A DNA stretch of 64,000 nt from Phycisphaerae bacterium (GTDB lineage: Bacteria > Planctomycetota > Phycisphaerae > SM23-33). Shown here piece after piece: positions 38,835 through 48,841 of the stretch (positions within the stretch are counted from its first letter, which is position 1; each line of letters starts with the position of its first letter). The translations under genes and the position numbers were made by a program. Where the stretch lies: positions 10,629 to 74,628 of the forward strand of contig JASLNT010000006.1 of NCBI GenBank assembly GCA_030745875.1, in the 5' to 3' direction. Below the pieces are notes generated by a model, which had not been told where the DNA came from, made no database searches, and saw nothing but the letters and a program-made list of their open reading frames with translations.

Positions 38835-41306
38835 TTACTTTGCCCGCTTCGGTTTGTACCACAGCGACTTCCAGTACTTCTGGTCTGTTTCGAAAACATC
38901 GATCTTGTCTTTGGACGGGTCGAACGAGTCAGGCAGCACGCCGTATTTTTTCATCTCACGGATGTATTGGCGGTTCGGTTTGAACTGCGGCGTGCCGAAT
39001 CGCGGTGTGGCGTCCATTCTGGTCTTGCCCAGTTGCAGCGACGCGAGCATGCGTTTGTAGTCCGGATCGTTCTTCGTCTTGAACACGCCGGGGCAGCTTT
39101 CGCGTCCGCCTGCTTTCTTCGCCAGCGGAGCCATCAGCACCGACGAGAATTCCGGCCGCGTAATGTTCACAATCGCGTGCGAACTATACAACGCCAGCGG
39201 GTCGTTCGGTATGATCTTTCGCTCGTGCCTCGCCACCGGCCGCTTGATGCCTCGGTTATTGGCTCCGTCCACGTGAAAGGGGACTCTTGGGAGTTTCTTA
39301 CCGTTGTGACATGAACCGCACCTGCGCTTAAGAACGGCTCCGACCCCGCCGAGTGCGGTTCCGGCGGCGTGGCCTTCGCGTCCCTGCTGTTCCTTGTTTC
39401 GCAGGCCTCCGTAGGATCCTGCGTAGGGTGCGGCGCTTTCGATCCACATCCAGATCGTTCGCCATTCGCGCTGCGAGACCTTGACCTTCTTGTGCTTTGC
39501 GTGCGTGCCGTTGATCTTCTTCATCAGCGGGCTGGCGTATGTGCCGATTGTTCGCGGCGGCTGGTTGCCGTATCCGTTGCGCCCGTCAGCCACCTGGAGT
39601 CGTGCGAACATAGCGTAGTAGGGCAGCGACCACATCCTGCCCAGATCGCCGGCAAGAGAGAGCTTGCCCTTGAATTTTGTGGGGTTGTGGCATTTCACGC
39701 AGTGCTTGTCGAATATCGGTTGGATGTCGCGATTGAAATCCAGCACGTCCGGATAACCCTCAAAGCGTTTGATCTTACTGGGCGGGCGTTTCATCGCCTG
39801 CAGCACGCGCGTTCGCATCACCGGTGCGGTCCTGGTGCGATTCTCGTGGCATCCGGCGCAACTCGTAACCTCTCCCGGGGCGACGCTGACGAAACTCTGC
39901 ATGCGTTTGACCGACAGGTCGTTTTCGTCCAGGGCGACAAAGAACACCGCACGGTTGGCCGGTAGAGTGAAAGAAGCTGACCCGTCTTCCTCTACGGGAA
40001 CCGTGCCGAGCACACGCTCCAGCGTAAACGTGCCCAGCCATGACGTCAGGTCCGGTCCGCCGGAAAAGTTCACCGGTTTGGGCAGCGATTCGAGGATCAA
40101 CAGCTTCTTGATGTCTCCTCGCTTGATCCCGCCCATATTCCTGCCATTGTAAACGTCGGTCAGCACCAGTTGCCCCGTGTCCAGCGATGGATTTGTCACC
40201 GGCAGGACCACGCGCTCGCGAGCGCGTTTGATTATGGGGCGGGGTTCGTGGCAGTTCAGGTTCGACGAGTAGATCACTTCGCTCTGGCCTTTACCGTTGA
40301 TTATCTGAATCGTCTTATATTGTGCGGCCAGAACGCAATTCTCATTGAAAGCCCACGGGTCGATATATCGCCCCTTGCGATTGTTGCTGGTGAGCTTTCG
40401 GATGCCTCTGGCGTCGTCCGGACCGAATGCGTCCGAGAAAATCGCCACCGCGCCATAGTGGTCCCGCTGTCCGTGCCCGGGCGATTCCAACCCGATAATC
40501 TTGTTAGTGCCCGGAATCGGTTTTGCGTCGATATACAGCGGGTAGTGTCTCTGGTTTCCGTAGTAGACCATCTGCCTGGTCCCGTCGGGGTTCACCGTCC
40601 AGAGATGGTGATATCCAATCTGGCTGCGGTCGGTGTATTCCCACCTTGTAAAGACTATGCGTCCGTCGGGCAGGACTGCGGGGGTGTTGTCGTGCTCGTT
40701 GTTGGACGATATCTGCACGATATCGCCTCCCTTGGCGTCGCAACGGAAGAGCGTGCCCACCTGCGTCATCCAGCAGTTCACCCAGCGCTTGCATCGCGTC
40801 GACACGAATACTATCCCGCCGTCGGGCAAGTACGTCGGTTCGTAGTCGTCAAACCGCCCGGAGGTGATCTGCTTGAGCCCCGACCCGTCGATATTTATCT
40901 CGTAGAGATTGTAGAAATGCGATTTGGGTTTGCGCATCGAAAAGAGAATCTTCTTTGCATCGTAGTGCACCTGGGGATCGCGTATCGAGCCTCCCTTGGT
41001 GTCGAGGATCACCGTAAGTTTGCCCGTCGGCAGGTTCAGTTTGCACAGTCTCCCCGTACCGGGCTTGCCGTTGGCCGCGTAGGCGGGTTTCTTCTCGTCG
41101 TCGCAGTAGTAACCAATGTTCGCGTACCAGTGCCCGTCACTGTACGAACTGCGATTAGCGAAGATTATGTCGGTGACGCCCTTCATGGGCCCGGCCAGCG
41201 CCTTGGCGAGCATCGGTCCGGGTTTCCGGGCGGGCCGCCGCGGGGCGGCGCCGGCAGCGATTGCGGTTAGCCCAGGCAGCACGAGTAATACAAGAAGTCT
41301 TTTCAT
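38835..41306 (-). CDS. secreted PD40/TolB-like beta-propeller protein with C-terminal triple-CxxCH (planctomycete cytochrome c, PSCyt-like) region
   Basis: Signal peptide MKRLLVLLVLPGLTAIAAG; PD40-like blades (ILFSMRK...YEINIDGSGLKQIT, AVLPDGRIVFTRWEY); CAGCH, CVKCH, CGSCH motifs. Confidence 0.7.
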   Translation of the reverse strand: MKRLLVLLVLPGLTAIAAGAAPRRPARKPGPMLAKALAGPMKGVTDIIFANRSSYSDGHWYANIGYYCDDEKKPAYAANGKPGTGRLCKLNLPTGKLTVILDTKGGSIRDPQVHYDAKKILFSMRKPKSHFYNLYEINIDGSGLKQITSGRFDDYEPTYLPDGGIVFVSTRCKRWVNCWMTQVGTLFRCDAKGGDIVQISSNNEHDNTPAVLPDGRIVFTRWEYTDRSQIGYHHLWTVNPDGTRQMVYYGNQRHYPLYIDAKPIPGTNKIIGLESPGHGQRDHYGAVAIFSDAFGPDDARGIRKLTSNNRKGRYIDPWAFNENCVLAAQYKTIQIINGKGQSEVIYSSNLNCHEPRPIIKRARERVVLPVTNPSLDTGQLVLTDVYNGRNMGGIKRGDIKKLLILESLPKPVNFSGGPDLTSWLGTFTLERVLGTVPVEEDGSASFTLPANRAVFFVALDENDLSVKRMQSFVSVAPGEVTSCAGCHENRTRTAPVMRTRVLQAMKRPPSKIKRFEGYPDVLDFNRDIQPIFDKHCVKCHNPTKFKGKLSLAGDLGRMWSLPYYAMFARLQVADGRNGYGNQPPRTIGTYASPLMKKINGTHAKHKKVKVSQREWRTIWMWIESAAPYAGSYGGLRNKEQQGREGHAAGTALGGVGAVLKRRCGSCHNGKKLPRVPFHVDGANNRGIKRPVARHERKIIPNDPLALYSSHAIVNITRPEFSSVLMAPLAKKAGGRESCPGVFKTKNDPDYKRMLASLQLGKTRMDATPRFGTPQFKPNRQYIREMKKYGVLPDSFDPSKDKIDVFETDQKYWKSLWYKPKRAK

Positions 41307-41474
41307 CGATGGCATTCCTTTATCCAGTCGCCCGAACATGTCAGGGCCGCTATATACTAGTAAGAACGCCTGTGAGACGAAAGACTTGCGTTCGAGCGGA
41401 TTTGACAGTGGCGTCGACAATGTGGTATTGTTGTAATAGTGCATGGAAGGTGCGGTTCGACCGAAAGGCTTGAG

Positions 41475-41951
41475 ATGGCGAGTTACGGCTACGATGAAGA
41501 GTACTCCGGGATCAGGAAGTTCCTGAATCCGCGGAATCCGATAGTTCGAAACGGTTTGCTTGTTGTGCTGGGGGCGGTGGCGCTTTACTTCCTGTGGAGT
41601 TCGATAAGCAGCCTTACGGGCATCGGCCAGGACACGGGAGTTATCGGCGACCAGTGGCGAGTCTCCTGCGTCCAGTGCAACGCTGAATCGGTCGTTTCAC
41701 GGGCCGCCCACAACAAGAAACAAGCCTCGGACCCGAAGTTGCAGCCGTATCCCGATTGCCCCGAATGCGGCGCGAAGGCCGGGTGTGTCGATTTGACCCT
41801 CTGCCCGAAATGCGATAAGGGATTCCCCAGCGACGCCGCAAAAGCCGTCCGCAAATCCGTAGACACCGGCGAGGCGGTCGACGAATACTCCTTCGATCTG
41901 ATTTGTCCCCATTGCAAGCATGACTTGAAAGGGGATTTGTCTCATGAGTAG
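41475..41951 (+). CDS. membrane-anchored double zinc-ribbon protein
   Basis: One TM (LLVVLGAVALYFLW); four CxxC pairs (CVQC, CPEC, CPKC, CPHC); 8-nt overlap with the downstream DUF1559 gene. Confidence 0.5.
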   Translation: MASYGYDEEYSGIRKFLNPRNPIVRNGLLVVLGAVALYFLWSSISSLTGIGQDTGVIGDQWRVSCVQCNAESVVSRAAHNKKQASDPKLQPYPDCPECGAKAGCVDLTLCPKCDKGFPSDAAKAVRKSVDTGEAVDEYSFDLICPHCKHDLKGDLSHE

Positions 41952-42852
41952 CTCCAGAAATCTCCAGAGGAACCTTAACGTGACCTACACCAGAAATCCG
42001 AACATTCAGGACGCACGTGCGGGGGCATTCACGCTTGTAGAACTCCTTGTGGTGATAGTGGTTATTATGATTCTGGCGTCGCTTGTAGCGCCGCTTTCGA
42101 GCGTTGCCACCGAGCGGGCGCGCCAGAGCAACTGTGGTGAGAAACTCAAGAACCTTCACCAGGCCGCCGCGTTGTACGGAAGTGCGAACGGCAACCTCGT
42201 TCCGCTGGTTCACGAGGCTACCGATTTCGGCGCCGTGGGCAAGATTCTCGCCAGCGGCGGGCGGTTCGCAGAGAAGTACATGGGGCAATCGTGGAATGGA
42301 GAGGGCAACAAGGCCACCGGCAAGTACGCCGACATGCTGAAGGACGACAACGTGTTCCAGTGCCCCGGAGCGCTCGAGAAGGCGGACCATTTCCTGAAGA
42401 AGGAAAGCACAAACTACCGGCTTACCGCGTTTGGTCTGTATACAGGCGGATCCAGCGGGCTGCACCCGTCAATGATGACTATAGGCGGAACCGTCCAGAA
42501 ACTGGCCGAATCTTCAAGGGGCGGGACAAAAATGCACCCCGCCGGCGAGGTCGCGATGGCGATGGACTGGATATGGTCCCGCAACGCTCAGGGGCTTGGC
42601 GGTTTCAACGGCGGATCGCTGAAGAATCACAACAAGGGCGCCAACGTTCTTTACGGTTCAGGCTCGGTGAAATGGGTGAATTACGGTACGATGCGCACAG
42701 TCCCGACCGTTCCGGGTTTGCTCATACCGCCCGGAACCTACGGTTTTGTGAAGGGCGGAACGAACGGGACGCACATTTTCGCCCCGTGCAGGGAAGTTAT
42801 CAAACCCAGCACCTCCGAACCCAGAAAGCCCGGTGTAGGGGTTATGTGGTAG
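41944..42852 (+). CDS. DUF1559 (H-X9-DG-like) prepilin-type pseudopilin
   Basis: ...RAG then AFTLVELLVVIVVIMILASL class-III leader; C-terminal HNKGANVLYGSGSVKW resembling H-X9-DG. Confidence 0.8.
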   Translation: MSSSRNLQRNLNVTYTRNPNIQDARAGAFTLVELLVVIVVIMILASLVAPLSSVATERARQSNCGEKLKNLHQAAALYGSANGNLVPLVHEATDFGAVGKILASGGRFAEKYMGQSWNGEGNKATGKYADMLKDDNVFQCPGALEKADHFLKKESTNYRLTAFGLYTGGSSGLHPSMMTIGGTVQKLAESSRGGTKMHPAGEVAMAMDWIWSRNAQGLGGFNGGSLKNHNKGANVLYGSGSVKWVNYGTMRTVPTVPGLLIPPGTYGFVKGGTNGTHIFAPCREVIKPSTSEPRKPGVGVMW

Positions 42853-43085
42853 GGATAATACTCTGCGGGGGAGCGGTTAACGCTTGATGTCAATCGGCGG
42901 GGGCGCTCGGCGAGAGCAAAAAGCAAATCTAATATGCAATACCTGCGTTATGTATGTCGTTATGCATAAAGTCAGGTGGAATATCGTGTTTCCGCGTTAC
43001 CAGTCGAGGTCTCGGACCACTAGTATATTGTTGTTGACGCATATGACCGGCGGCTGGACCTGCGAAAGAAAACGTAATATGCCTA

Positions 43086-43114
43086 TTGACGTTTCGGAGT
43101 ATTCGGACTATAAT
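43086..43114 (+). promoter_or_regulatory. near-consensus sigma70 promoter (TTGACG-17nt-TATAAT) in an AT-rich island, ~180 nt upstream of the first paralog
   Basis: Seen in sequence: -35 TTGACG at 43086-43091, 17-nt spacer, -10 TATAAT at 43109-43114. Confidence 0.45.
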
Positions 43115-43299
43115 CTTTTTATGCTATAGCCCGCCATACTTGGGAGAGTTGGGATCTCTTTGGCGGTAATGAGTTGTTCGGTAGCATCTGCCGAACGTGA
43201 CTAACGGAGAAGTTGTCCATCCTTAGGGTTATGCAGCGTTGATTGTTTCTTCGGGAGAGAAGTGATAGGACCGGCCTGTGAGGCGGCCTGCGAGCTACT

Positions 43300-44589
43300 A
43301 TGAGTGAAGAACGAGGCAATACGGCATTAGATACATTGTCCGACGCGCACCATGAGACCATCAAGACCGTTCATTCGGTGAGGAAATGGGTTGCGGCGCT
43401 GGCTGTGCTGGGTTTTGCGTCGTGGGTGATTCTCGCTATGGTGATATCGCAAAGTCGGGTCCCGTCGGCAGCCAGCGGAAACGCCGCCTACGCAACCAGC
43501 AAACCCATGATCGCCACTGACGGTCCGTGGGGTCGGCTTGAATACAGTCCGATAGTAGTTTCTCCCCCGCGTGAGTACGTCGCCGAGAGCGCCGTGGACT
43601 TCTCCGGACCGGTGGTGTGGCATTTTCCAAATGTGGGATCGACGGGGCTCAGTCGCCTGCTCAAGGAGATCGGTTTTGACGCAGGGCTCGTAGCTGATTT
43701 GGAGATTATCGCTCGAGCGAACGTTTCGATGCCTGGAATGAGCCTCCATCCGTCGAAGGAATTCGTGCTGGGCCTCAGCGCGGATAATCGGGCAAAACTC
43801 TATCTCGCCCTTGCCGATTACCCCCAAAACACCGATTGTCGCAATCAGTTCCTGTTTCGCGGCCGGACGACCGAGGAGTGGTTCGCCGGATCCGATGTTT
43901 CTCCGGAAACAAGGAAACTTGTGGAGCCCTTGATATACCGACACGGTAATTTCATGTACTTCGCCGACATGCGGAGTATCGATGCGGACATTCCCTCCAA
44001 GGAACAGCGATTGGAGCTCCTGAGAACGCTCAGGCGAGATTCCACTTTCCTGGTTCACGTGAAAGTGTCGAACAAGGAGGATGTTGACGGGCTTGTCAAC
44101 TACTGGGGACGGGCCGGGCGAGTGCAGGATGTGCGACCGATCCTTGAGTCGCTGGCGGGGCGTCCCGAAGAACAGTTAATCAACATCACACATCTCCTGC
44201 CTCCGCTGGCCCGGAGGAAACTCTACACTTATTCAGCTCGGTTGATTCAGGACTTCAAGATGACGCGCGACTGCCACTGGACCACCGCAAATTTCTTCCA
44301 GGAAACGCCTGACGATAAGTTTGCCGACGCGAACATGTTCTTCGCCGAACTGAGAGAGGAATTCTATCGAATCCACGGAAATCTGCAGTTGGGCGACGCT
44401 GCTCTGGTTGTCGATTCCAGAGGGGCGCCGGTTCATTCGGCGACCTATATTGCTGACGACATATTCTTCCACAGATGCGGGTCAGACTCATCGTCCCCAT
44501 GGGCGCTGACTAAGGGGGAGGACCTGCTGGGCTTCTACCCGCGGCGAGGGAAGCTCACGATTCAGTACTATCGGCGGAAGAATATGTAA
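43300..44589 (+). CDS. membrane-anchored hypothetical protein, paralog 1, with NlpC/P60-like Cys...GD...His signature
   Basis: One TM (WVAALAVLGFASWVILAMVI); C-terminal RDCHWTTANFF ... LQLGDAALVVD ... VHSATYIADDIFFH. Confidence 0.65.
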   Translation: MSEERGNTALDTLSDAHHETIKTVHSVRKWVAALAVLGFASWVILAMVISQSRVPSAASGNAAYATSKPMIATDGPWGRLEYSPIVVSPPREYVAESAVDFSGPVVWHFPNVGSTGLSRLLKEIGFDAGLVADLEIIARANVSMPGMSLHPSKEFVLGLSADNRAKLYLALADYPQNTDCRNQFLFRGRTTEEWFAGSDVSPETRKLVEPLIYRHGNFMYFADMRSIDADIPSKEQRLELLRTLRRDSTFLVHVKVSNKEDVDGLVNYWGRAGRVQDVRPILESLAGRPEEQLINITHLLPPLARRKLYTYSARLIQDFKMTRDCHWTTANFFQETPDDKFADANMFFAELREEFYRIHGNLQLGDAALVVDSRGAPVHSATYIADDIFFHRCGSDSSSPWALTKGEDLLGFYPRRGKLTIQYYRRKNM

Positions 44590-44655
44590 GCCCAGGGTCT
44601 GTTTACGGACCAGCCGCAGAGCAGGGGATGTTCCCGCTGGAACGGTGCAGTAACT

Positions 44656-45960
44656 ATGCAGGGCCGTATGGACACCCAAGAACACGATATGCTGGACGAC
44701 GATTCCGTTGAGTTGCTTGCTGAGGCGTCCGAGATCATTCGATCCGCGAAGAAGTGGATTATCGTCCTCTCGGTCGCTGCAGTCTTGTCGTGGGTGCTCA
44801 GCGGGGCGGTGTTGATTCTGACTTCCCACGCTCGTATCGAAACAGCCGATGCTCGCGGATATCCGCCTGCTGATTCCTACCGAACGAACTCCGGACCCTG
44901 GGGGCGACTTGAGCACCTTCCGGTAGTCATTGCCCCGCCGCTTGAAAACGTCTCTGAGAATATCGAGGATTTCTCGGCGTCGGCGGTGTGGCGGTTTCCA
45001 AACGTCGGACCGGCGGAATTGCCCGTTCTATTCGAGAGTATCTCCCTTTCGGACTCCCTGCGGACCAAACTGCTGTCGATGGCTCAGATCGATATTTCGC
45101 TCCGCGGAATGGTGATCCGACCTTCCAGAGAATTCGTACTCGGGCTCAGCCGCATCGACAGGGGGAAGCTCTACACGGCGTTGTGCGGTTACATGGAAAA
45201 CGGCGATCAGCAGAAACAGTTCGTATTTCGCGGAACTTCCCCGGAGCAGTGGTTCACAGGATCGGGCGTGTCTCCGGACACCAGGAAGCTCGTCGAGCCC
45301 CTCATCTACCGCCATCGCGGGTTCATGTACTTCGCGGATCTGAGGAGCATTGCAGAGACGGTAAACCCGCCAAGCCAACTTCCCCGTCTGGTTCGGGCAT
45401 TGAGTCGAGATGCGACGGTTCTTGTTCATCTCAAGCTTGACAAGAACGATAACATTGACGCGTTGGTGAAGTACTGGGGATGCGGCGGGCGGGAGCAACA
45501 GGTCAGACCGATCCTTGAATCGCTCGTGCGAAACGGGGTCGAGCGGGAGATCAATATCGTACATCTTCTACCTCCGCTGGCCAGGCGGAAGCTCTACACG
45601 TATTCGCCGCGACTGGACGCCGAGACCAGGCCCAAACGAGACTGCAACTGGACAGCCGCGAATTTCTTCAACGAGACGCCCGACGATCGGTTTTGCGATC
45701 CCAAAGAAGTTGTCAAGATGCTGCGAAACGACTATCGCCGAGTCCACAGCAGCCTCCAGTTGGGCGACATTGCAGTTGTTCTCGACGAGAAGAAGATGTC
45801 GGTGCATTCGGCTGTGTATGTCGCCGACGAAATTTACTTCCACAAATGCGGACCGGGCGCCTCGGCGCCGTGGACCCTCGCTCGGGAAAAAGACCTCGCA
45901 AGCTACTACCCGCGAACCAAACAAGGCTCCATATGGTTCTATCGCCGCAAAGACCTGTAG
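44656..45960 (+). CDS. membrane-anchored hypothetical protein, paralog 2 (tandem duplicate of 43300..44589)
   Basis: Colinear with paralog 1; same motifs RDCNWTAANFF, LQLGDIAVVLD, VHSAVYVADEIYFH. Confidence 0.65.
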   Translation: MQGRMDTQEHDMLDDDSVELLAEASEIIRSAKKWIIVLSVAAVLSWVLSGAVLILTSHARIETADARGYPPADSYRTNSGPWGRLEHLPVVIAPPLENVSENIEDFSASAVWRFPNVGPAELPVLFESISLSDSLRTKLLSMAQIDISLRGMVIRPSREFVLGLSRIDRGKLYTALCGYMENGDQQKQFVFRGTSPEQWFTGSGVSPDTRKLVEPLIYRHRGFMYFADLRSIAETVNPPSQLPRLVRALSRDATVLVHLKLDKNDNIDALVKYWGCGGREQQVRPILESLVRNGVEREINIVHLLPPLARRKLYTYSPRLDAETRPKRDCNWTAANFFNETPDDRFCDPKEVVKMLRNDYRRVHSSLQLGDIAVVLDEKKMSVHSAVYVADEIYFHKCGPGASAPWTLAREKDLASYYPRTKQGSIWFYRRKDL

Positions 45961-46005
45961 GCTCCAGCGCGCAGTATGTGGGTCCGGGGAGGCCGGGCGA
46001 CTGAA

Positions 46006-47241
46006 TTACTTACCGCTCTTGATCGGATCGGACAGGATTTCGATGTCCTTGTACTCCACGTGCATTTCCTGCCCGCCGTGCAACTGCAAACCAAGATAGC
46101 CCTCGCTTCGCCCAGGATCGTTCTTCAATTCCGCGGTCTTGCGATCGTTAACGTGCACGACGATTCGCTTACCGCGCGCCGAGACTGTCATCTGGTTCCA
46201 CTGGCCCTGCTTGACGAGTTTCTTGATCTGCTTGGCGTCGGGCCTGGTGACCCAAGCCCGCCCGCCGGTCTCGTACAGCCCACCGACGGCCATGTCGTCA
46301 GCGGCGATCTCGGCTTGGAAACCGTTGACGTTAACGTTGCTCTTGACTTTGTCGACGCGGAAATAGAGCCCGCTGTTGCCTTTTAAGGCTTTGAACTTCA
46401 GGCGGATCGTAAAGTCCTTGTACTTCTTATCGCTGAGCAGAATCCCATGCTTGCGTTCAGTTTTGGGGCAGGAGCCCACGATCGCTCCGTCCTTGACCTC
46501 CCACTTACCGCCCGGAGTTGCGGACCATCCCTTCAGCGTTTTTCCGTCAAACAGGGGCAGCCACTTGCGATGCCCCAGATCCTTGATCTTCAGATTCCTC
46601 CAGCAGACCGACACCGGATCGGCCCGCTTGCCCACACCGTGGACCTGCAACCCGATAAAACCGCTCAACGTCATGGAGTCAACCAGGTCAGCCGCCGCCA
46701 CGCCGTTCAACTGCGTCTTAAGCGAATCGGCAATGGCCTCGACGCGGACCTTGTTCCACTCGTTCTGCTTGAAGGCCTTGCGCGCCGGTTCGTTGCCCAG
46801 GAGGTTGTTCAACCAGCCGCGACGGCCTTCCTCGTAAATGCCCGCCGTCCAGGCCCGTTTGGACGGATCTATCTCAACCTGGTATCCATGGACTCGCCCG
46901 GACTTGTACGACTGGAGGCTGTTGGAGCGGATCTGTACGCCTGAGTTAAGCGACGGGTCGACCTTGAATTCGTATTCGAGAACGAAGTCGCCGTACGCTT
47001 TCTTCGTGCAAAGAAAACTGTTGGGCGTATTCGGAACTGACGAACCGACGATCACGCCGTCTTTGGCTTGGTATTTCGCCTTCCCGCCAAACTGCTTCCA
47101 TCCGTCGAGGGTTTTACCGTCAAACAAAGGGACGAACTTCACTTCAGCCGCAACAGGTTTGGGTTTCTCTTCCGCCCGCGCCGCGGCCGCAAACAGTACG
47201 ACACTGGCGACTAAAACGCTCTTACCGATCAGATTCATCAT
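46006..47241 (-). CDS. secreted protein with two tandem DUF1080 (3-keto-disaccharide hydrolase / LamG-like) domains
   Basis: Signal peptide MMNLIGKSVLVASVVLFAAAARA; duplicated FVPLFDGKTLDGWKQ / WLPLFDGKTLKGWSA blocks; start taken at internal MM. Confidence 0.75.
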   Translation of the reverse strand: MMNLIGKSVLVASVVLFAAAARAEEKPKPVAAEVKFVPLFDGKTLDGWKQFGGKAKYQAKDGVIVGSSVPNTPNSFLCTKKAYGDFVLEYEFKVDPSLNSGVQIRSNSLQSYKSGRVHGYQVEIDPSKRAWTAGIYEEGRRGWLNNLLGNEPARKAFKQNEWNKVRVEAIADSLKTQLNGVAAADLVDSMTLSGFIGLQVHGVGKRADPVSVCWRNLKIKDLGHRKWLPLFDGKTLKGWSATPGGKWEVKDGAIVGSCPKTERKHGILLSDKKYKDFTIRLKFKALKGNSGLYFRVDKVKSNVNVNGFQAEIAADDMAVGGLYETGGRAWVTRPDAKQIKKLVKQGQWNQMTVSARGKRIVVHVNDRKTAELKNDPGRSEGYLGLQLHGGQEMHVEYKDIEILSDPIKSGK

Positions 47242-47395
47242 GTCTTGCTCCTTAGGTTGTAAGGCGATTGTATCGACGGCGGGGCCTGCGGCAAGTCTGT
47301 TTTTCTTGACTCGGACGCAGGCATGCCCAAGAATGGAATTAGGCGTTCCAAACGATAAATGAAACCACCTATCGTCTCGATCACAAGGAGATGGC

Positions 47396-48841
47396 ATGAT
47401 GACATTTCGAAAACTCCTCCCGGCCGCGATAATCGTTCTCCTGGCGGGCGTCGAAACCGGATCGAGAGCCTGCGACACATGGGTCGCCATGCGCGACCAG
47501 ACAACGTGCGGGTATACAATCCACGCCAAGAACAGCGACAGGCCGGTTTTCGGATGCCAGCCCCTGGTCTACAACGCAGCAAAGAAATGGCCCGCCGGCG
47601 CACAAATAGACCTCGTGCGGACGAAGATCCCCCAAGCCGCCGAAACTTACGCAACGCTCGGATCCAGCCCATACTGGTCATGGGGATATGAAGAAGGGAT
47701 AAACGAGCACAGTGTCGCGATAGGCAACGAAGCGGTATGGACGAAACCGCTGGCCGAAGACGCCGCCGCCCACCGTGCGGGCAAGAGCCCCAAATTCGGA
47801 CCCAACGGTATGGACCTGGTCAGGTTGGGACTCGAACGGGGCAAGACCGCCCGCCAGGCGCTCGATGCGATAGCCCGCGTCGTCGAGAAACACGGTCAGT
47901 TCGGGTCCGCCAGCCCTACGCGAGGCGTCTCGGGCGGATATCACAACTCCTTCATTATCGCAGATCCCAACGAGGCGTGGATTCTCGAAACCGCCGGACA
48001 CCGATGGGCCGCAAAGCGACTGAAGAAGGGCGCCACGTCAATCTCGAACGCACTATCGCTTGGAACAGACATCGATCTGAAGTCCGCCGACCTGGTGTCT
48101 TACGCGATTGGAAAGAATTGGTGGCCGGAGGGCAAGGATGCGGAATTCCATTTCCAGCACGCGTACTCGCCGCGAACCAAGAAGGACGACCCCGTTGTCA
48201 CCCGAGTGCACGGACGGGCCGCCTGCTCGCGCAGGATGCTGGCGGAGAAACCCGGAAAGGTGGATGTTCGGTGGATGATGAACATTGCGAGATGTCGGCA
48301 GATCGGGCTGAACATAACCGCCAGCTCCGCCGTCAGCGTCCTTCCGCACACCGACGCGGAACTGCCGGTCTATTGGTGGTGTCCTTCAACGCCCGCGGCC
48401 AGTTGCTACATTCCTTTCTTCGTTCACGGATCGGGCGTACCGAAAATCGTATCGACCGCCGGAACGCACGGCAGTGCGGTGGAAATGCCCAGCAAGACCA
48501 AACGCGATAAGTTCTCCGACAAATCGTACTGGTGGTTGGTTCGCGATCTGGCTGACAAGGTCCGGGCCGACCCCAAGACTCGCGCCCCGATTGTCAGAGA
48601 AGCCTTCGACGCCCTGGAGAAGGAGTTCCAAAACGGGTTGGGCGATCTCGTAAAAACGGCCGCAAAACTCAGAAAGAGCGGAAAACCAGAAGCTGCGGCG
48701 AAAATACTGGACGCGTACACCAACGAATGTTTAAAGAAAGTGCTGGTCCGTTTAGAATCGCTTCGCAACCGCTTCTCGGAGAAACCGCAGCCCAAAAGTT
48801 CTGAGAAAGGTTTCCGCGATGTTGTCGGACCGAAGCGGTAG
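47396..48841 (+). CDS. secreted peptidase C69-family (Ntn-hydrolase) dipeptidase-like protein
   Basis: Signal peptide then ACDTWVAMRDQTTCGYTIHAKNSDRP (N-terminal nucleophile Cys pattern of C69). Confidence 0.55.
   Translation: MMTFRKLLPAAIIVLLAGVETGSRACDTWVAMRDQTTCGYTIHAKNSDRPVFGCQPLVYNAAKKWPAGAQIDLVRTKIPQAAETYATLGSSPYWSWGYEEGINEHSVAIGNEAVWTKPLAEDAAAHRAGKSPKFGPNGMDLVRLGLERGKTARQALDAIARVVEKHGQFGSASPTRGVSGGYHNSFIIADPNEAWILETAGHRWAAKRLKKGATSISNALSLGTDIDLKSADLVSYAIGKNWWPEGKDAEFHFQHAYSPRTKKDDPVVTRVHGRAACSRRMLAEKPGKVDVRWMMNIARCRQIGLNITASSAVSVLPHTDAELPVYWWCPSTPAASCYIPFFVHGSGVPKIVSTAGTHGSAVEMPSKTKRDKFSDKSYWWLVRDLADKVRADPKTRAPIVREAFDALEKEFQNGLGDLVKTAAKLRKSGKPEAAAKILDAYTNECLKKVLVRLESLRNRFSEKPQPKSSEKGFRDVVGPKR

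Follow-up and report, generated by a model that had tools for sequence, protein, structure and literature searches.

Two membrane-anchored paralogs of an unnamed family

What activity might be encoded by two neighbouring bacterial genes whose products match no named domain? This question is raised by a tandem pair of open reading frames, ORF A and ORF B, located in a 64,000-nt stretch of DNA from a Phycisphaerae bacterium (assembly GCA_030745875.1, contig JASLNT010000006.1, positions 10,629 to 74,628 of the forward strand; this whole stretch is termed the window). It is concluded here with high confidence that the C-terminal domain of these proteins belongs to the NlpC/P60 (papain-like) fold. 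It is also considered, on balance, probable that the pair are envelope cysteine hydrolases, i.e., bitopic proteins with a periplasmic body that would cleave peptidoglycan stem peptides.

The original prediction, made from the letters of the DNA, described two adjacent colinear reading frames of 429 and 434 aa that are tandem paralogs, each with a single N-terminal transmembrane (TM) helix and no recognised named domain, and on all these points it proved accurate. Both genes lie on the + strand, separated by 66 nt, and their products share 49% identity over 414 aa (E 6e-148); the ATG of ORF A lines up with the start codons of its orthologs. The sequence of ORF A is that of protein P0001, which carries no label beyond hypothetical protein in a Phycisphaerae metagenome-assembled genome, and ORF B is P0026, its neighbour on the same contig. 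The hydrophobic segments cover approximately residues 31–52 of ORF A and 35–57 of ORF B, and in the AlphaFold2 (AF2) model of ORF A residues 13–52 are helical and are followed by a low-confidence linker (53–68). A TM-type hydrophobic segment was found in 133 of 135 full-length relatives. Searches of Pfam, NCBIfam and PDB sequences with both full-length proteins gave no named domain, and the matches returned (DUF3615, PmbA_TldD, AMMECR1, an antibody Fab and RdgC) were rejected as noise.

The relatives of these proteins are numerous. A word-indexed search yielded 72 homologs, and an exhaustive profile search gave 1,891 representatives (50% identity, E ≤ 0.001), 998 of them at E ≤ 1e-30; nearly all are 400–450 aa long and match end to end. 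They are encoded at no fewer than 579 loci in species-representative genomes of Planctomycetota (Phycisphaerae, Pirellulales, Thermoguttaceae), Acidobacteriota (mainly Vicinamibacterales), Verrucomicrobiota (Opitutaceae, Limisphaerales) and a few other groups. Since the carriers belong to several phyla, the family is not specific to Planctomycetota, a point on which the original prediction had called for a check. Two members, P0073 (768 aa) and P0095 (706 aa), are of double length with two full matches each, being either fusions or the result of missed stop codons. Every source labels the members as hypothetical proteins only, and no Pfam or NCBIfam model covers the family. No paper came up in a literature search that combined NlpC/P60 with Planctomycetes, and the 2023 classification of papain-like proteins mentions neither Planctomycetes nor Acidobacteria (PMC10318531).

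On present evidence the family is a large, unnamed and architecturally distinct branch of a well-known superfamily, and not a new kind of system. Little is known of the enzymes that remodel the cell wall in Planctomycetota, Verrucomicrobiota and Acidobacteriota, phyla whose peptidoglycan was long a matter of debate. Through the assignment, about 1,900 sequence clusters from at least 579 species receive a fold, a predicted catalytic triad and an activity that can be tested, and an unnamed accessory domain of ~220 aa is defined; a Pfam-type model built from the family alignment would annotate thousands of proteins.

The predicted catalytic domain

Which residues of these proteins would form an active site? 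Conserved blocks around a Cys, a GD motif and a His were read in the original prediction as an NlpC/P60-like catalytic signature. Two alignments establish that the blocks are real and kept by selection (residue numbers are those of ORF A unless stated otherwise). Of 64 close homologs, 63 have Cys325 and all have Gly365, Asp366 and His379. In a wide alignment of 149 sequences, composed of 147 diverse representatives and both window proteins, Asp or Asn at position 324 is present in 143, Cys325 in 142, Gly365 and Asp366 in 148 each and His379 in 147; in a few members Cys325 is replaced by Ser (4/149), Pro or Gly.

In the AF2 model Cys325 opens helix 325–330, His379 lies on strand 377–385 and His391 on the neighbouring strand 388–392. 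This order of a Cys-bearing helix and His-bearing strands is, in the predicted structure, the papain-like arrangement, with the modelled nucleophile helix packed on an antiparallel sheet that carries the histidines. As expected in this superfamily, the putative nucleophile is preceded by Asp (Asp324-Cys325, at the helix N-terminus), Cys325 and His379 follow in the non-permuted order, and Gly365-Asp366 aligns with the GD of MepS and of the cyanobacterial endopeptidase 2evr. The third polar residue is His391 in ORF A and His396 in ORF B, both aligned with the third His of MepS, so that the triad predicted for the window proteins is the canonical Cys-His-His of NlpC/P60 enzymes. A GD motif and a Cys-His-His triad are hallmarks of the NlpC/P60-CHAP-amidase cluster (PMC10318531).

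Profile comparisons were made with the C-terminal domain. When residues 296–429 of 34 family members were scanned alone, 19 matched Pfam NLPC_P60 (PF00877) below threshold and no other family recurred; the best match (22.1 bits) spans from 3 residues before the Cys to past the third-residue position. A reference profile, for which the sequences of MepS, Acd24020 and LytE were recovered from PDB alignments and then aligned, was matched by the family domain in hhalign with 86% probability (E 4.8e-6), placing GD on GD, His379 on the catalytic His of MepS and position 391 on its third His, and the family profile likewise aligns its GD-His block to 2evr. All of the top-ranking structural neighbours are peptidoglycan DL-endopeptidases of the canonical, non-permuted type, while lipid-acting members of the fold score much lower. 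The interpretation in the original prediction is partly supported: its core, a papain-fold domain of the NlpC/P60 type, agrees with the motif alignment to MepS, the modelled fold and the sub-threshold NLPC_P60 matches, and what falls is the acquired cassette that was attached to it (discussed below). Because membership of PF00877 was not found at the family level, the family is filed in the NlpC/P60 superfamily and not in PF00877 as now modelled.

How far does the family depart from its better known relatives? Canonical NlpC/P60 proteins (MEROPS C40, PF00877), such as E. coli MepS/Spr, B. subtilis LytE and CwlO and E. faecium SagA, are peptidoglycan DL-endopeptidases, and the similarity of the family to them stays below the Pfam threshold. 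The Cys motif reads DC[HFY]W[TS]xxNFF in place of the canonical DCSG[FL], the anchor is an N-terminal TM helix instead of a lipobox, LysM or SH3b, and an obligate, unnamed N-domain of ~220 aa is present. In the multi-domain YkfC-like BCE_2878 (3h41) and the cyanobacterial AvPCP/NpPCP (2evr) extra N-terminal domains shape the active site; these accessory domains are SH3b, whereas the accessory body of the present family contains neither SH3b nor another recognisable fold. CHAP amidases and endopeptidases (the CHAP domains of LysGH15/LysK, 4olk) belong to the same superfamily, and the aromatic residue of C-x-W, at the second position past the Cys, is a feature shared with them. LRAT/PLAAT and other membrane-anchored, circularly permuted acyltransferases of the NlpC/P60 superfamily are likewise papain-like Cys/His enzymes tethered to a membrane by a single helix.

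The active site varies at the third residue, which is His in canonical NlpC/P60 enzymes and Thr/Asn in most family members. Positions 391 and 393 covary, with H-x-C in the clade of the window and Thr/Ser-x-Asn in 129 of the 149 aligned sequences, and the residue that orients the catalytic His in most relatives is probably Asn393. The family-wide T-K-N, in which a polar residue on the third strand is followed two positions later by an Asn, is reminiscent of the Glu-x-Asn of CHAP domains, the catalytic residues of LysGH15 CHAP being C54, H117, E134 and N136. The switch between Thr/Asn and His/Cys suggests two alternative ways of orienting the catalytic His inside one family, and it could be used for studying the third catalytic residue in the NlpC/P60 fold.

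The N-domain, an obligate fusion partner of the predicted catalytic domain, is unnamed. Its invariant residues are W77, G78, W107, R164, Y168, D223, Y268 and W269. Its periodicity (Table 1) was examined for internal repeats by hhalign among five segments of ~40 aa; the best pairs reached 71% and 63% probability over 10–14 columns, which is unconvincing, and the internal-repeat reading was rejected.

Table 1. Features of the gene pair and its upstream region (positions in the window; residue ranges refer to the protein named)
Feature	Position	Strand	Remarks
Sigma-70-type promoter-like site upstream of ORF A	43086-43114	+	TTGACG-17 nt-TATAAT; 11/12 consensus
Conserved leader core of ORF A	43127-43244	+	~120 nt; candidate cis-regulatory RNA or operator region
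Leader helix P1	43131-43136/43161-43166		window's own minimum free energy (MFE) fold
Leader helix P2	43142-43147/43155-43160		window's own MFE fold
Leader helix P3	43176-43184/43188-43196		window's own MFE fold
Upstream open reading frame (uORF)	43174-43200		8 codons, TTG start, M/L-F-G-S-I-C-R-T-stop; coincides with P3 hairpin
ORF A	43300-44589	+	429 aa; short N-tail, TM helix, linker, unnamed alpha/beta body, predicted C-terminal NlpC/P60-fold domain
ORF A TM helix, ~residues 31-52	43390-43455	+	hydropathy 2.57 over 19 aa; helix in AF2 model
ORF A N-terminal body domain, ~residues 75-295	43522-44184	+	unnamed; ~40-aa strand-helix-helix periodicity
ORF A NlpC/P60-fold catalytic domain (predicted), residues 296-429	44185-44586	+
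ORF A Cys325 codon	44272-44274	+	TGC; predicted nucleophile, in RDCHW
ORF A Gly365-Asp366 codons	44392-44397	+	GD motif just before first core strand
ORF A His379 codon	44434-44436	+	predicted general base; aligns with catalytic His of MepS and His of 2evr
ORF A His391-Arg392-Cys393 codons	44470-44478	+	third-residue position and covarying neighbour
ORF B	44656-45960	+	434 aa; paralog of ORF A, same architecture
ORF B TM segment, ~residues 35-57	~44758-44826	+	strongly hydrophobic
ORF B body domain	44893-45555	+
ORF B NlpC/P60 domain (predicted)	45556-45957	+
ORF B Cys330	45643-45645	+
ORF B GD	45763-45768	+
ORF B His384	45805-45807	+
ORF B His396-x-Cys398	45841-45849	+

Proposed activity and the alternatives

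In the proposed mechanism each protein would begin with a short tail in the cytoplasm, cross the membrane by a single helix and continue through a flexible linker into a body of ~360 aa outside the cytoplasmic membrane, made of the unnamed alpha/beta domain of ~220 aa and the divergent C-terminal NlpC/P60 (papain-fold) domain. His379 would activate Cys325 and His391 would orient His379 (Cys330, His384 and His396 in ORF B), whereupon the thiol of Cys325 would attack an amide bond, giving an acyl-enzyme intermediate that is resolved by water. The proteins may act as a cysteine amidase or endopeptidase at the outer face of the cytoplasmic membrane, and a peptidoglycan stem peptide is the likeliest substrate because non-permuted peptidoglycan DL-endopeptidases make up all of the nearest structural relatives, from which the putative DL-endopeptidase class is likewise predicted. 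The N-domain could serve as a substrate-recognition or gating module; in YkfC-type enzymes accessory domains select or gate the substrate.

Several results weigh against this proposal. Neither window protein matched NLPC_P60 (E ≤ 10), nor did the C-domain of ORF A alone, and the top family member falls just under the gathering threshold of 23 bits. The hhalign match is limited to the GD-His-His block and leaves out the Cys helix, and Foldseek gave no matches at E ≤ 0.001. The Thr that most family members have at the third-residue position is unusual for NlpC/P60, and clustering of the neighbours at 80 loci revealed no peptidoglycan gene that regularly accompanies the family. The positive-inside bias is modest, so the orientation in the membrane is insecure. 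Enzymes of the NlpC/P60 fold also include acyltransferases, deamidases and depalmitoylases (PMC10318531).

One alternative is that the same fold and centre act on an envelope substrate other than peptidoglycan, i.e., that the proteins are an amidase, esterase or acyltransferase for a lipid, a lipoprotein, an exopolysaccharide-linked peptide or a secreted peptide, which the N-domain binds. It is regarded as plausible although rather unlikely, since the best structural neighbours are canonical peptidoglycan endopeptidases, with lipid-acting members far below them, and since the family shares its GD motif and the arrangement of Cys-GD-His-His, in order and in spacing, with the cell-wall hydrolase group. 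More doubtful is a bolder version, in which the pair would represent a distinct, undescribed class of envelope enzyme whose repeat-like N-domain directs the divergent centre to a substrate other than the stem peptide, and in which, within the Phycisphaerae clade, a new structured leader RNA that senses an envelope-related signal controls the A copy; one candidate substrate is a polymer or lipid of the envelope that is peculiar to Planctomycetota, Verrucomicrobiota and Acidobacteriota.

The orientation itself may be questioned. Were it reversed (N-out, C-in), a cytoplasmic body could process, for example, peptides of peptidoglycan recycling or a thiol-polyamine conjugate. The N-in, C-out topology is predicted from the positive-inside bias, which favours it in 70 versus 36 of 135 relatives, and from the lysine and arginine residues of ORF A, three before the helix and one after; moreover, an N-terminal signal-anchor, a disordered linker and a large globular body are the usual layout of exported bitopic proteins, and the reversed orientation is accordingly held to be improbable. 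The possibility that either protein, or both, lacks catalysis and serves as a scaffold or regulator draws on the existence of non-catalytic NlpC/P60 domains, RipD (4jxb) being among the Foldseek matches, and on the few members in which the Cys is replaced by Ser, Pro or Gly. It is very improbable, as Asp-Cys, GD and both His are kept in both window proteins and the retention of the Cys and His across the wide alignment argues for selection on catalysis.

Origin of the pair, its leader and its neighbourhood

Was the gene pair recently acquired? The original prediction placed it in an AT-rich island and suggested an acquired cassette. The island is confined to the 447-nt intergenic spacer upstream of ORF A (GC 0.49); both genes have an ordinary GC content (0.56–0.57; window 0.57) and GC at third codon positions (GC3, 0.66–0.69). 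Upstream lies a prepilin-like N_methyl protein, and downstream a convergent 3-keto-disaccharide hydrolase, Peptidase_C69, a CoaBC-like DFP and FtsK, and in related Phycisphaerae contigs the orthologous gene, whether in one copy or two, lies between these same neighbours. Contigs L001, L085, L086 and L207 have the A-type copy only, while in L084 a B-type copy (58% identical to B) follows the A-type (65% identical to A) at the same syntenic site; tandem pairs also occur in L209 and L211. The A-type orthologs of single-copy genomes are 63–70% identical to A, and B only 49%; these orthologs being closer to A than B is, the duplication appears to predate these lineages, with B differentially lost or kept among them. 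The pair is read as an ancient tandem duplication that has been kept.

A horizontally acquired cassette, e.g., a toxin/immunity or defence module, could be argued for from the near-consensus promoter within the AT-rich spacer and from the recurrence of tandem copies across the family. It is contradicted by the GC and GC3 of both genes, which match those of their neighbours, by the synteny with related contigs and by the conservation of promoter and leader together with the gene. In addition, mobile-element or toxin-type genes are not adjacent and the two ORFs are full-length paralogs instead of an enzyme with a small partner, so this origin is hardly credible. Tandem duplication recurs independently in Thermoguttaceae (three copies in L011, 2916–7092), Verrucomicrobiota (pairs in L046, L074 and L077) and Phycisphaerae.

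The near-consensus promoter noted in the original prediction is present as a promoter-like sequence, matching the sigma-70 consensus as given in Table 1. Orthologous loci L001, L004, L005, L006, L007 and L085 retain the two hexamers together with a portion of the spacer (GAGTATTC). This conservation in DNA extends over the ~180-nt leader, promoter and leader together occupying 43086–43299, and the A-type ortholog proteins are only 54–70% identical. The two genes are probably co-transcribed from this site, with a predicted start at about 43121, through the leader, whose conservation suggests a candidate new cis-regulatory RNA or operator region; if functional, it would amount to a previously undescribed regulatory element associated with an envelope hydrolase.

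A putative structure of the leader was evaluated with a covariance model built from six orthologous leaders, which scored 98–122 bits on its sources and 63 bits on the divergent L211. Against ~1 Mb of other loci no credible match was found; the one model match, in L185, lacks a downstream family gene and was discarded as spurious. A metagenome pattern scan gave 120 matches, essentially all by chance, the pattern being too loose. With ten distinct rows (seven full-length leaders, two partial ones and one antisense fragment) the pair counts are suggestive, with 78% paired versus 31–43% in slid controls and 7 pairs changed on both sides; of 500 shuffles, the observed values were reached by 7 for the percentage paired, 10 for the covariation score and 23–32 for pair-type measures. 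Compensatory variants of P2 include GAGAGTT/AACTCTC (L005), ACAGCC/GGCTGT (L006) and AGAAC/GTTCT (L211). With six sequences covariation did not rise above shuffles, RNAalifold recovered only the P3 hairpin, the folding energy is not unusual (MFE z = -0.05), and Rfam 15 gave no match at E ≤ 1 in positions 42000–47000 of the window and in six orthologous loci. The inverted repeat GTTCGG-N9-CCGAAC suggests, as another reading, that the leader is an operator. It may also function as the 8-codon uORF that overlaps P3, an equivalent of which (MFGSxCRT, with ATG, GTG or TTG start and the stop at the same place) is found in 5 of 7 leaders, L005 and L211 being the two that lack it.

Does the wider neighbourhood point to a partner? 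No neighbour recurs in more than 12 of the 80 loci, and as the conservation does not extend beyond clade-local synteny, the context gives no functional partner. Within the clade of the window a protein with a prepilin-type N-terminal methylation motif (~290–300 aa; 41944–42852, same strand) is always encoded just upstream, and in L001, L085, L086 and L207 it is preceded by a small ORF (~166 aa) with no Pfam match. Further upstream, an 869-aa protein (38835–41444, – strand) bears the middle domain of the hydrazine-synthase alpha subunit (PF18582, E 7e-19) along with PD40 beta-propeller and cytochrome c signatures; in related contigs it adjoins a PQQ-like beta-propeller protein, and such a protein is unusual outside anammox bacteria. 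The 3-keto-disaccharide hydrolase ORF (507 aa; 46006–47529, – strand) overlaps the start of the Peptidase_C69 gene (47396), and its orthologs have 408–414 aa, the true start being probably ~95 codons further in. Finally, at six loci labelled Vicinamibacterales or Acidobacteria, some of them Acidimicrobiia or Solibacteraceae (L017, L018, L031, L033, L035 and L055), an apparent single-domain response regulator of 146 aa is encoded 35–105 bp downstream of the family gene on the same strand, an adjacency that suggests clade-specific co-transcription with a signalling protein.

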